Source: a virus. From it: a stretch of DNA of 64,000 bases. A program made the position numbers and the translations under genes. Where the stretch lies: IMG/VR virus record IMGVR_UViG_3300046492_000199. One strand, 5' to 3'. Under the pieces are notes generated by a model. It saw nothing but the letters and a program-made list of their open reading frames with translations. It did no database searches and was not told the DNA's origin. Positions 19,389 to 49,806 of this stretch are shown here, in pieces (position 1 is the first letter of the stretch; every line of letters starts with the position of its first letter).

Positions 19389-19787
19389 TTATAAATCTTC
19401 CTTGCACTCGGCCCAAGAAACTGGTTGGTTAGTGATCCATTTTTGAGTAAACGAATCGTACTTCTTTCTAAATCCACCGGGATAAGAAGTTTCAATGCCG
19501 TTCTTATGTCTTAGTTTTAGATAATGAATTGCGTGATCGGTCTTTAATTTCTCTACACCTTCTGGTGTAATTCTGTTATCATCGTCTACATCATTGATAT
19601 AATATTGACAAAGATAGTCATTGTAATGGATGTTGGACCAATCGGTTAGGCCTATCACATCAATTAAATAATCTTCAAATTGCTCATCGGCTCTTTGATA
19701 ATCTTCTAAAATAATGCCAAACTTAAGAGGCTGGTTCATCAACGTTAAAACCTTGACGCTTGGAACCAAAAGGATAGGTCTTGCCAA
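19389..19787 (-). CDS. Hypothetical protein
   Basis: 132-aa ORF; start uncertain. Confidence 0.5.
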   Translation of the reverse strand: MARPILLVPSVKVLTLMNQPLKFGIILEDYQRADEQFEDYLIDVIGLTDWSNIHYNDYLCQYYINDVDDDNRITPEGVEKLKTDHAIHYLKLRHKNGIETSYPGGFRKKYDSFTQKWITNQPVSWAECKEDL

Positions 19788-45190: not shown

Positions 45191-45783
45191 TATCCAAACC
45201 TTTCACCGTTTGCGGTAAACGTATATTCGTTGATACGAATATTTTCATCAACGTTTTCGTTGCTCATGTAATCGTTGTAAGCCTTTTCAAGCTCGCGATA
45301 TATCCAACGCATGAAATCGCGCATGTATTCCTTGATACTCGTTTCAAGCGTCTCATTGATAAAATGCCCGTTCTTGTGTTCAACGTCAATATCGGCGGAA
45401 TGTTCGTGATAGTATCGCCCGCTATGCCGAACCGTAGCAGTTAGGCAATATAGCGCCTTCTTTTGGATATCCTGCAATTCCTTTGCCAGCGTCACAAGCG
45501 TATCGCAACCGCCAGTATGTGCCGCAATAGCAGCGCCAGCGCCTTTGCGATACTGGTATGAACCTTCAAAGCAAGCCCCGTCGCCTTGGGACCAAAAACC
45601 GCTGAAATAGATTTTATCAACGGTTATTCCTAGCAGCGCGCCGCATTCCGTAACGTCTTCAAAAGTGTATTCAAACCAATCATCATTGCGCGCCAACTCT
45701 TTCCACCAATTGCGCGCCGTGTCTTTCGCGGATTCGTTCAATTCGTCAAACTTGAAAACCGTGGTTTCGATGATTGAAGGCAT
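45190..45783 (-). CDS. Early protein with YFSGFWSQGDGA motif
   Basis: Motif recalled from plasmid/ICE proteins often labelled 'antitoxin of TA stability system'; function unverified. Confidence 0.6.
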   Translation of the reverse strand: MPSIIETTVFKFDELNESAKDTARNWWKELARNDDWFEYTFEDVTECGALLGITVDKIYFSGFWSQGDGACFEGSYQYRKGAGAAIAAHTGGCDTLVTLAKELQDIQKKALYCLTATVRHSGRYYHEHSADIDVEHKNGHFINETLETSIKEYMRDFMRWIYRELEKAYNDYMSNENVDENIRINEYTFTANGERFG

Positions 45784-45875
45784 TGCCTTAGCTCCTATGT
45801 GAAAGGCGTTTCGATATGCACAACTTAGATGTAAGGAAAAATCGTGTCAACACAAAAATTAAATTATTTTTCCTA

Positions 45876-45904
45876 TTGACTTCGATAGCGGAATCGCTTA
45901 AATT
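45876..45904 (+). promoter_or_regulatory. Rightward sigma70-type promoter
   Basis: TTGACT-N17-TAAATT. Confidence 0.55.
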
Positions 45905-45981
45905 AAAAGTACATCAAGGATGCAGCGCTGCGAAGCGGGGCGGAGGTGGGGAGAATGAGGGATGGGATTTTTTTTAAAACG

Positions 45982-45996
45982 GAACAAAACAAGAAC
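45982..45996 (+). promoter_or_regulatory. Alphaproteobacterial LexA-type box
   Basis: GAAC-AAAACAA-GAAC. Confidence 0.6.
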
Positions 45997-46144
45997 AAGC
46001 CGCGCCTAATATAGACGCGGCTAATTGATTATCGTGGCATATGCAAGCAATCGCCAGCCTTGCCGATTTGATTCAGCCGGTAGAACCTGCCATTTAGATA
46101 AAGGCAAATCCACCAATAGCCGTCAATTAGATGATACTTAAACA

Positions 46145-46360
46145 TCATTCCACCTTCTTAATCAGCCCGTTTTCCATCGTGATCTTTGCGAAGAATTCGC
46201 GACCGGCAAGGCCTGTAACGGCGGGGCGATGAGCCGCAACAAACGTTCCATTGGCTTTGAACTCAGCGCCGAATATGGACGTTTCGCGATACTTCAAAGG
46301 CTTGCCAATCGCGGTTTCCTTCATTTCCTTCTTGCTCTTATAACCGGTAAGTAGCATCAT
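46145..46360 (-). CDS. Early hypothetical protein
   Basis: 71 aa, AAGGAG RBS. Confidence 0.65.
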   Translation of the reverse strand: MMLLTGYKSKKEMKETAIGKPLKYRETSIFGAEFKANGTFVAAHRPAVTGLAGREFFAKITMENGLIKKVE

Positions 46361-46470
46361 TTCCGTTACTCCTTAGTTGCGTTGTTTCGTTATGTCCAAT
46401 GTAAGGAAAAGGTGGAACGTGTCAACAAAAATCTTTTATAAAAATAATTTTATTTCGTGCCGATTTTCTA

Positions 46471-46499
46471 TTGACTTCAAATCGGGAATCGAATAATCT
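46471..46499 (+). promoter_or_regulatory. Rightward sigma70-type promoter
   Basis: TTGACT-N17-TAATCT. Confidence 0.55.
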
Positions 46500-46580
46500 A
46501 AATTCAATTCAAAGACAGGCGAGAGGCGCGGAGCGCTGGCCCGAGGATGGGAACGGCGAACCTGCCCGCTTTTTAAATCG

Positions 46581-46720
46581 GAACAAACAGGGAACAAACC
46601 ATGAACAGGAACAAAACGTGAACAAAGATATAACATAAGGAGAACAAAACTGTAACATACAGAGAACGGCGGAACAAACCGTGAACAAACCAAGAACACC
46701 GCAATGTTCACGGTTTGTTC
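46581..46720. repeat. 11-bp-phased GAAC/GTTC array (tandem LexA-type SOS boxes)
   Basis: 14 half-sites in four phased blocks. Confidence 0.85.
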
Positions 46721-46808
46721 CGCTTGATTTTTAAAAAATTTTGAAATATTTTTAAATAAAATTGAAACGCTCGCGCGCCAGATTTCGCCACAGCGCGCCA
46801 GAAAAAAC

Positions 46809-46872
46809 GGACTCTTGTGATGAATGAAAAATGAGAGTTCGTGATAAATAAAAATTGGACTCTTGTGATGAA
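46809..46872. repeat. 16-bp direct repeat GGACTCTTGTGATGAA x2
   Basis: Copies at 46809 and 46857 with a degenerate middle copy. Confidence 0.8.
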
Positions 46873-47240
46873 AGAAAAACCGGCTGTCTCGATCCTTCAA
46901 AATTGTGATAAGGAGGGTCACAATCCTGCGGGAGAGACGAGCCGGTTCGAGCAACGTTTGGAAAGAGGTTGAACCAAACGTTGTTTCTGCGATGTGTTAG
47001 AACTGGTGCCACGTTCTAGGTGTATGAGAGGATATTTGTCAACAACTCCATCATAGCAGGGCTTTAACCCACGCACCAGTCATGATCGATTACTCACTTA
47101 GGTTCTCCACCAACGAGCCGCTTGTTGCAGTTCGCGACTTTTCGGAAATTGAACCATATCATCCTAATACGCGGATGCCTCTCGGCTGGCGGGCCACTAA
47201 TGCTGCAAACATTAGCTAGAGGTTTTCATCAACCATGTGC
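46860..47240 (-). ncRNA. Candidate large structured RNA
   Basis: No credible ORF, many helices, TTGACA promoter at 47267-47272. Confidence 0.4.
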
Positions 47241-47268
47241 TACTGTCTAAACGACTAAAACGATTCTG

Positions 47269-47484
47269 TCAAGCCGTTTGTTTCGAAACACGTCTCACAC
47301 CGAAATCAGGATCGTTTACCGTTTCGCCATTGAATTTAACAGCGACTCGCCTGATGGTGCAAACATCAGCGCTGGGATACTCCCTGAAGAATTCGTTGCT
47401 GGCGCGGCGCATATCGGCAAAGGGTCGTGTTACTCTGATTGCGCCGCTTGCAATACCAAATGCGACATATTTGTTGTAGTTCAT
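47269..47484 (-). CDS. Hypothetical protein
   Basis: AAAGGAG RBS. Confidence 0.5.
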   Translation of the reverse strand: MNYNKYVAFGIASGAIRVTRPFADMRRASNEFFREYPSADVCTIRRVAVKFNGETVNDPDFGVRRVSKQTA

Positions 47485-47867: not shown

Positions 47868-48143
47868 TCAAGCCGCCGTCTTAGCCTTCCAAGACTTGCT
47901 CAGGTTCAGCAGAGCCTTGCCGCGAGCCGTGGGACCGTAGACGATCTTCTTGCGGCCCCGGCCCTGATCCTTGACAGCCTGAGTCGTGACGCGGCCCGCT
48001 TCAGCGACATAACCCATGTCGATAAGCTCGCGAACCACAGCATATTTCAGCGTGCCGCCTTCCTTTTCCCACGTGTCGCCATTAACGATAGCCTTCAGCT
48101 GAGCCACGACGCCGACCTTGCTCTTAAGTTCCTTACGTGCCAT
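47868..48143 (-). CDS. Winged-helix-like basic protein
   Basis: VVRELIDMGYV...GRGRKKIVYGPTARGK wing pattern. Confidence 0.55.
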   Translation of the reverse strand: MARKELKSKVGVVAQLKAIVNGDTWEKEGGTLKYAVVRELIDMGYVAEAGRVTTQAVKDQGRGRKKIVYGPTARGKALLNLSKSWKAKTAA

Positions 48144-49442: not shown

Positions 49443-49806
49443 TTAAATTCTCCTTTTCGAGTAAGAAATCAGTTGTTTAAACTTTATAACCTGAATGTAA
49501 GAAAATGTAAAAGCCTTGTCAAGCCCTTGTTGCGCCATTTTTTCAATTTAATTTTTTAAAAATTCACATTTCTACGACATATAGCTGGTCAGCTATGAAT
49601 TGTGATCCGCTAAGTTGTTAAAAAATAAGGATTTTAAATTTTGAGCCTAAGAATCAGAGATAAAATTTCAATTTATTTTATAAAAATTAATATTTAACTT
49701 TTAAAAAATTTAAAATCCGGCAGTTAAATGAACCATATTGATATTTATACCAGTTTCAATTTGCAATCAGTTTTAGTGTTTGACACGTATATTATAATGA
49801 GTTAGA

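Follow-up and report, generated by a model that had tools for sequence, protein, structure and literature searches.

In Alphaproteobacteria, the SOS repressor LexA targets the direct repeat GTTC-N7-GTTC, which is GAAC-N7-GAAC when read on the other strand. Direct repeats at 11-bp intervals are also typical of winged-helix response regulators such as CtrA, PhoB and ArcA, and the idea that virulent phages read the master regulators of their hosts is currently based on Spo0A in phi29 and on CtrA in phiCbK-like phages. Clusters of sites for the host regulator CtrA (TTAA-N7-TTAA), verified by EMSA, occupy intergenic gaps and terminal repeats of large alphaproteobacterial phages, as described for phiCbK, Cp1R7A-A1, Lacusarx and vB_BsubS-Delta (PMC9437464). 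Host LexA has been co-opted by temperate elements, namely GIL01 with its gp7/gp6, the CTX phage and coliphage 186 with Tum (PMC4551915, PMC6182141).

Here, we analysed a stretch of viral DNA of 64,000 nucleotides (IMG/VR record IMGVR_UViG_3300046492_000199; hereafter, the window) in which GAAC words are densely repeated in a gap between early genes. A preliminary description had taken these repeats for a helically phased array of alphaproteobacterial LexA boxes in a non-coding region. Our comparisons suggest that the phage probably reads or soaks up host LexA, and the reading that we favour, at about even confidence, is that the array consists of co-opted host LexA operators that would tie a nearby cis element to the SOS state of the host.

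The phage and its repeat array

The window comes from a large tailed phage and contains 21 tRNA genes as well as genes for a portal, a large terminase and tail proteins. The portal is 37-48% identical to those of large siphophages of Erythrobacter, Rhodobacter, Ruegeria, Mesorhizobium and Sphingobium and of Caulobacter phiCbK, a 1191-aa tail protein is ~45% identical to Rhizobium phage proteins, and matching DNA is present in rhizosphere metagenomes. By portal similarity, the phage falls into the cluster of large alphaproteobacterial siphophages that includes phiCbK, Lacusarx and Cp1R7A-A1, and the portal and tail protein, together with the rhizosphere source, make an alphaproteobacterial host likely. 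The phage is probably virulent; no integrase or repressor families were found among the proteins scanned, which represent part of the genome, and the window has no lysogeny genes. At the nucleotide level, the window is absent from the named-phage collection. INPHARED BLAST of the array region returned no relative of the array and matched only a 71-aa gene, in RcTitan-like phages, and a short-query search of named phages gave chance matches, with the exception of Loktanella phage pCB2051-A.

The array is located in a gene-free gap of ~900 bp (46361-47268) amid a run of small early genes that point leftward and have individual promoters of the TTGACA-17-TACATT type. From left to right, the gap holds a promoter-like site, a hairpin followed by TTTTT, the array, an A/T tract, a set of 24-bp repeats and more hairpins. 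As read from the sequence, the array has 12 direct GAAC/TAAC words on the plus strand, in three blocks with exact 11-bp steps, and two inverted GTTC words. Block 1 (46581-46606) has three GAAC half-sites starting at 46581, 46592 and 46603. Block 2 (46609-46667) has six, at 46609, 46620, 46631, 46642, 46653 and 46664, two GAAC words coming first and TAAC (46631 and 46653) and GAAC alternating thereafter, and block 3 (46672-46697) has three GAAC words at 46672, 46683 and 46694. The inverted words at 46706 and 46717 form a GAAC-N7-GAAC box on the minus strand (46706-46720), and relative L244 carries two identical copies of this 15-mer. All of these words, and the exact step inside each of the three blocks, are found where the preliminary description had placed them. 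The helical phasing that it claimed is true only within blocks, since the blocks are offset from one another by 6 and 8 bp.

A further box, claimed to lie outside the array, is likewise present at 45982-45996 (plus strand) as a single operator-like GAAC-N7-GAAC. It is directly 3' of a T-run, ahead of the terminator hairpin of the minus-strand gene 46145-46360, and its complement is one base off a published Caulobacter LexA box; the same order of terminator and then box also occurs in relatives L421, L362 and L375. In the whole window, GAAC-N7-GAAC was observed 11 times against 2.19 expected, a number that none of 100 shuffles reached, and 7 of the 11 occurrences fall in 45982-46720. Regarding coding capacity, the only long frame across the array, one of 172 aa on the minus strand, was considered as a gene and rejected because it is broken in relatives L333 and L244, and related metagenome contigs have 1-2 bp indels near the array. 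The array is therefore non-coding, in agreement with the original claim. Block 3 and the inverted box together form a perfect 19-bp inverted repeat (46669-46723, with arms at 46669-46687 and 46705-46723) followed by TTGATTTTT on the plus strand, with an RNA fold of -34.5 kcal/mol (z -7).

On the left of the array, a promoter-like site TTGACT-17-TAATCT (46471-46499, plus strand) points at the array, and its -10 word is kept in L336, L333 and L244. It is followed by the hairpin and TTTTT (46517-46576, plus strand), with a fold of -25.9 kcal/mol that ends at the T-run and a z of only -1.3, and the array begins 5 bp past this element, which looks like a small terminated transcript or terminator cassette. 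The inner stem of the hairpin has two-sided changes among relatives (GCGC/GCGC, GCCC/GGGC, GACC/GGTC), and its 3' part is common to many metagenome contigs, with a depth spike at 46538-46605. Two paralogous plus-strand cassettes, at 45876-45975 and 46471-46576, each contain a promoter-like site (TTGACT-17-TAAATT at 45876-45904, from a consensus scan, and the TAATCT version described above), a hairpin of ~65-70 nt and a T-run; both are antisense to the leftward early genes and have a GAAC box directly 3'. These cassettes may be small RNAs or terminator cassettes, and an Rfam search of 45700-47400 gave no match above chance.

None of the array boxes overlaps a recognisable promoter, and they come after T-run terminators. 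The nearest promoter-like sites, at 46471-46499 (plus strand) and 46425-46398 (minus strand), are ~80-160 bp off, and calling the weak TTGATT-17-TATTTT beside the inverted box a promoter is a guess. The nearest gene on the left, which is transcribed from the promoter at 46425-46398, is the 71-aa gene (46145-46360, minus strand; phrog_37117). Its homologues, 60% identical, are found ~350-730 bp from large GAAC arrays in L001 (4493-4696) and L066 (1256-1459), two contigs otherwise unrelated to the window. The product of this gene was considered as the array binder and set aside, as the RcTitan homologue has no array nearby. A 91-aa protein (47868-48143) considered as a winged-helix protein was also dropped, with no PDB sequence match and an unusable single-sequence AlphaFold model (pLDDT 44).

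Match to LexA operators and conservation in relatives

In order to compare the array with real operators, upstream regions of lexA and recA were collected from ~60 genomes across the class Alphaproteobacteria, and 53 operators (31 lexA, 22 recA) were extracted. The lexA operators have the form GAAC-[CT]AAA[CG]TA-GAACA, often followed, 21 bp further on, by an inverted TTTGTTC, an arrangement present in most of the sampled lexA promoters (L257-L285) and conserved across orders, and the recA operators have the form GAACAAAA-N3-GTACAT. When the true operators were scored with a 20-column weight matrix, leaving one out at a time, their median was 22.0 bits and their 10th percentile 14.8. At the threshold that retains 90% of true operators, the matrix found 8 sites in the 64 kb, compared with 0.5 matches per 64 kb in Markov shuffles; seven of the 8, scoring 16.2-22.7 bits, fall within 45980-46722. 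Six of these seven belong to the array (18.3 and 16.2 bits in block 1, 20.8 and 21.1 in block 2, 17.8 in block 3 and 18.9 in the inverted box), and the seventh is the outlying box at 45982-45996, which at 22.7 bits has the top matrix score in the window.

Chains of more than two half-sites are found in chromosomes too. Operators with three in-phase half-sites occur at recA of an uncultured alphaproteobacterium (L179) and, in 11 genomes of Mesorhizobium, Agrobacterium and Aminobacter (L126, L147-L150, L165, L172, L173, L178, L185 and L192), before a small hydrophobic ORF. The recA operator form and these chromosomal three-half-site operators make GAACAAA-N4-GAAC and in-phase chains natural LexA targets. 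In the 11 genomes, the triple overlaps the TTGACA promoter of the ORF, which codes for a conserved hydrophobic peptide of ~30-40 aa (MTDLVQDVVSLVCMS...) that resembles SidA, a small membrane protein, and seems to be induced by SOS in the same way. Elsewhere in the L333 genome, a single GAACAAAATAAGAAC box (L420; G067 19489-19503) abuts the -35 of a strong TTGACA-18-TATAAT promoter, which may be genuinely repressed by LexA in this phage lineage; a copy of the 15-mer in G066 is apparently within coding DNA.

Orthologous modules were found through a neighbouring 197-aa gene and a conserved 18-mer, in IMG/VR contigs L336, L333 and L244/L332 and as short versions in metagenome contigs L362 and L375. 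A metagenome scan with the 18-mer gave mostly chance matches in GC-rich coding DNA, and the true relatives that it recovered were only L333, L336, L362, L375 and L244/L332. L336 and L333 have the same layout as the window (3, 6 and 3 direct and 2 inverted half-sites), with both TAAC words kept. Among these three full arrays, variable positions number 2 of 56 in the core, 10 of 41 in the A-flank and 18 of 43 elsewhere in the unit, and the bases preceding each GAAC are without conservation. Purifying selection acts on the array, and the bases that it holds constant are exactly those conserved in real LexA operators. At the level of sequence, the claim of alphaproteobacterial LexA-type boxes was thus corroborated, both by matrix scores of 16-23 bits and by the retention of GAAC and, more loosely, of the A-rich flank. 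Strain variants from four rhizosphere runs have 17-27 differences from the window over ~150-210 bp, and the in-array differences listed for them fall at N4 positions, with none in the core among those listed; since this list is partial, strain variants serve as supporting evidence only.

The number of half-sites is less constant, and relatives have from two (one box) up to about 14. There are six in L244, which comes from a complete genome of 185 kb with terminal repeats, and L362 and L375 have a single box each; in the 185-kb relative the module is found at 45 kb, with one array per genome. In the more distant relatives L245 and L246, no box was found within 6 kb of the shared gene. The hairpin or terminator was considered as the selected feature and rejected, since L244 keeps the boxes and lacks the long stem; the boxes, and not the hairpin, are conserved. 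As copy number is not fixed either, what is conserved is a short docking word at 11-bp spacing.

These copy numbers bear on a proposal that the array is a LexA sponge, in which multiplying phage genomes would titrate free LexA and thereby switch on SOS genes of the host (recA, repair, division inhibitors) in the absence of DNA damage. The proposal draws on the same sequence evidence for a LexA match as the operator reading, the position of the boxes outside promoters suits a decoy, and ~4-7 dimer sites on every genome copy in the cell could in principle compete for limited repressor. However, close relatives manage with three operator equivalents (L244) or one (L362, L375), the complete 185-kb relative has a single array in its genome, and most of the named alphaproteobacterial phages scanned have no arrays. 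We therefore consider a sponge unlikely. It is similarly improbable that GAAC arrays at large would be a widespread undescribed class of decoys, multi-operator LexA sinks that switch on the SOS regulon, though if this were true, RecA, repair and division arrest would benefit the phage without DNA damage.

Distribution of GAAC arrays and other possible readers

A pattern of three GAACAAA-type half-sites at 11-bp steps matched at least 120 IMG/VR contigs, mostly in non-coding arrays of 3-16 half-sites. Among the matches listed, 43 contigs carry one of three BLAST-distinct types of large terminase, with the array upstream of that gene except in L025, where it is at the far contig end; besides the terminases, no protein family is common to the array loci among the matches listed. 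The best named relatives of the array contigs, at ~40% identity, are pelagiphages and roseophages, and identity at this level does not establish their hosts. One named phage, Loktanella phage pCB2051-A, has a small array, of 7 half-sites. At the end of its record (L241 1-480), these half-sites are found between 4 copies of a ~45-bp repeat and 5 copies of a ~26-bp repeat, with no annotated feature in the stretch shown. No arrays were found in 13 other named alphaproteobacterial phages, including 3 pelagiphages and 2 CHUG roseophages, or in the two gammaproteobacterial phages scanned. GAACAAA-type 11-mer arrays also occur in one Gammaproteobacteria MAG and one Oligoflexia MAG, and a scan of the genome collection with the array pattern was near chance overall among the matches listed. 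The ends of L042, an IMG/VR contig of 13,556 bp, are perfect inverted repeats of 245 bp. Each holds three GTTC words in 11-bp steps ~50 bp in from the contig end, with an inward promoter, which points to a small linear phage, with ends of the protein-primed type, or else to an artefact of assembly.

Another possibility is a different reader, either a host response regulator of the OmpR/PhoB type or a small terminase that would use the array as a signal for packaging or for a genome end. The 11-bp spacing of direct repeats fits winged-helix response regulators, the array is upstream of the large terminase in the 43 of 120 IMG/VR loci listed with those types (L025 excepted), 15 arrays among the loci listed are within 300 bp of a contig end, and the boxes of Loktanella phage pCB2051-A are ~220 bp from its record end. 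Against this, the large terminase gene of the window is 11 kb from the array, the module of the complete relative is at 45 of 185 kb, and the upstream-of-terminase pattern partly reflects where non-coding DNA is placed in short viral contigs. We know of no response regulator with a GAAC repeat motif, and CtrA sites, which were considered for this role, were rejected since TTAA-N7-TTAA is not enriched in the window (5 against 3.06 expected) and is absent from the gap at 46361-47268. Either form of this explanation seems very unlikely to us.

The right side of the gap bears on another alternative, already raised in the preliminary description, in which the repeats would be iterons of an origin or cis replication region, and an initiator encoded by the phage would bind the GAACA words and melt the A/T tract; in satellite phage P4, for instance, this role falls to the winged-helix end of a primase-helicase. 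The A/T-rich tract at 46725-46767 has A/T runs periodic at roughly 10-11 bp and is highly conserved among relatives. An inverted copy of part of it (46745-46767), 83% complementary, is located at 49666-49688 in the region of the divergent early promoters. Next to the tract come three repeats of 24 bp (A-run, GGACTC, N4, GAT[GA]A; 46802-46897, plus strand), which are kept in L336, L333 and L244 and may be sites of a second, phage-specific protein; their exact word occurs nowhere else in the window. Direct and inverted repeats at about one helical turn, the conserved 43-bp A/T tract, a second repeat family and hairpins together make up an origin-like layout, and the blocks with 46725-46767 provide what iterons are recognised by, at least three short repeats at approximately helical spacing beside an A/T-rich stretch. 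In six IMG/VR loci (the L005 group) the array is directly 3' of an AAA_25 primase-helicase gene, consensus DnaA boxes within 250 bp of arrays number 7 against 1.4 expected (~5-fold, some of the loci being related), the triple repeat of L042 is inside its terminal inverted repeat, and the cumulative G-C minimum of the window is nearby, at 48.0-48.5 kb.

The iteron alternative is nevertheless weakened by several observations. Iterons are read over 8-19 bp, whereas conservation here is limited to GAAC and part of the A flank, and the other 4 bases of the unit are free; conservation of the whole unit was not found in the three orthologues, with the 18 of 43 variable positions mentioned above and a weakly conserved AAA. 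No candidate initiator was found within 5 kb, no protein family is shared by the array loci listed, and the small flanking genes matched no Pfam or PHROG replication family, the replication genes being outside the window. Isolated single boxes occur after terminators, the blocks are mutually out of phase, and one identical core across three terminase types would be unusual for initiator-iteron pairs. The G-C minimum and the A/T-richest stretch are 1.5-3 kb from the array, at a switch in transcription direction, and the skew minimum with the most A/T-rich 45 bp (49660-49720) points to a divergent promoter region 3 kb off. Because it contains the A/T-richest stretch of the window and is close to the cumulative G-C minimum, this divergent early promoter region appears to be the better origin candidate by composition. 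Iterons remain a serious, though less probable, alternative to LexA operators. If a phage protein does bind, the arrays would mark a widespread element of the origin or partition type that mimics the host SOS box, and cross-talk between the arrays and host SOS boxes would come into question.

Co-opted host LexA operators remain our favoured reading. The presence of the same unit in at least 120 contigs with three terminase clusters and no shared neighbour family favours a host factor. The sites of L001 are discrete pairs and triplets with irregular spacers, and these, like the out-of-phase blocks, are the expectation for a dimer that reads two half-sites. It counts against LexA that the boxes do not overlap a recognisable promoter, that the layout is origin-like, that 13 named phages are without arrays and the distant relatives L245 and L246 without boxes near the shared gene, that similar arrays occur in the Gammaproteobacteria and Oligoflexia MAGs, and that half-site number differs so much among relatives. 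LexA as the binder, the alphaproteobacterial host and all steps of the following mechanism are what we infer. A siphophage of a rhizosphere alphaproteobacterium would have acquired LexA sites and kept them in a control gap of its early region. In an undamaged host, LexA dimers would occupy about 4-7 adjacent operators, and cleavage of LexA, after host DNA damage or in response to ssDNA from phage replication, would make the dimers leave. LexA occupancy could in this way gate a neighbouring cis element, either read-through from the promoter at 46471-46499 (plus strand), antisense to the leftward early genes, or the A/T tract and 24-bp repeats just right of the array.

Comparison with known systems

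The type I iterons of P4 ori/crr (TGTTCACC), which are bound by the alpha primase-helicase, are the known replication sites most similar to the array. In both, short repeats that contain TGTTC recur every 9-11 bp, some direct and some inverted, right after a terminator, which in P4 is that of the alpha gene. However, conservation in P4 extends over 8-9 bases of each unit and takes in the CACC part, whereas the phage array conserves only GAAC and the A flank and has no alpha-like gene nearby, and the lack of conservation in the bases before GAAC argues against a P4-type reading of TGTTCACC. In P4 itself there is no such ambiguity, since LexA of its host reads a different motif.

Alphaproteobacterial LexA operators share with the array the GAAC direct repeat at 11-bp centres, the A-rich flank, the free N4 and the occasional third in-phase and inverted half-sites, and the array scores are within the range of true operators. 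The two differ in number and place, as LexA operators have 2-3 half-sites that overlap the -35/-10 of the regulated gene whereas the ~14 of the phage follow terminators in a gap devoid of genes. Unlike in the operators, two positions of the phage array are fixed as TAAC. As in GIL01, CTX and 186, the phage would be a mobile element with host LexA boxes and a programme that follows the SOS state, but their boxes overlap lysogeny-switch promoters, while those of the phage are many and outside promoters, in a window that has no lysogeny genes.

The CtrA-site clusters of related large phages are the closest documented counterpart of the array. The motif here is of the LexA type and not of the CtrA type, for which binding has been shown by EMSA. 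If host LexA does bind, more than 100 uncultured phages would gain a common control element, and the reading of host master regulators by virulent phages would be extended to the alphaproteobacterial SOS repressor. The likeness to the CtrA clusters is otherwise broad, since both are found in the same wide phage cluster as judged by portal similarity, both consist of dense known or putative sites for a host global regulator with 11-bp spacing of half-sites, and both are located in non-coding DNA among small early genes and have evolved repeatedly in unrelated phages.
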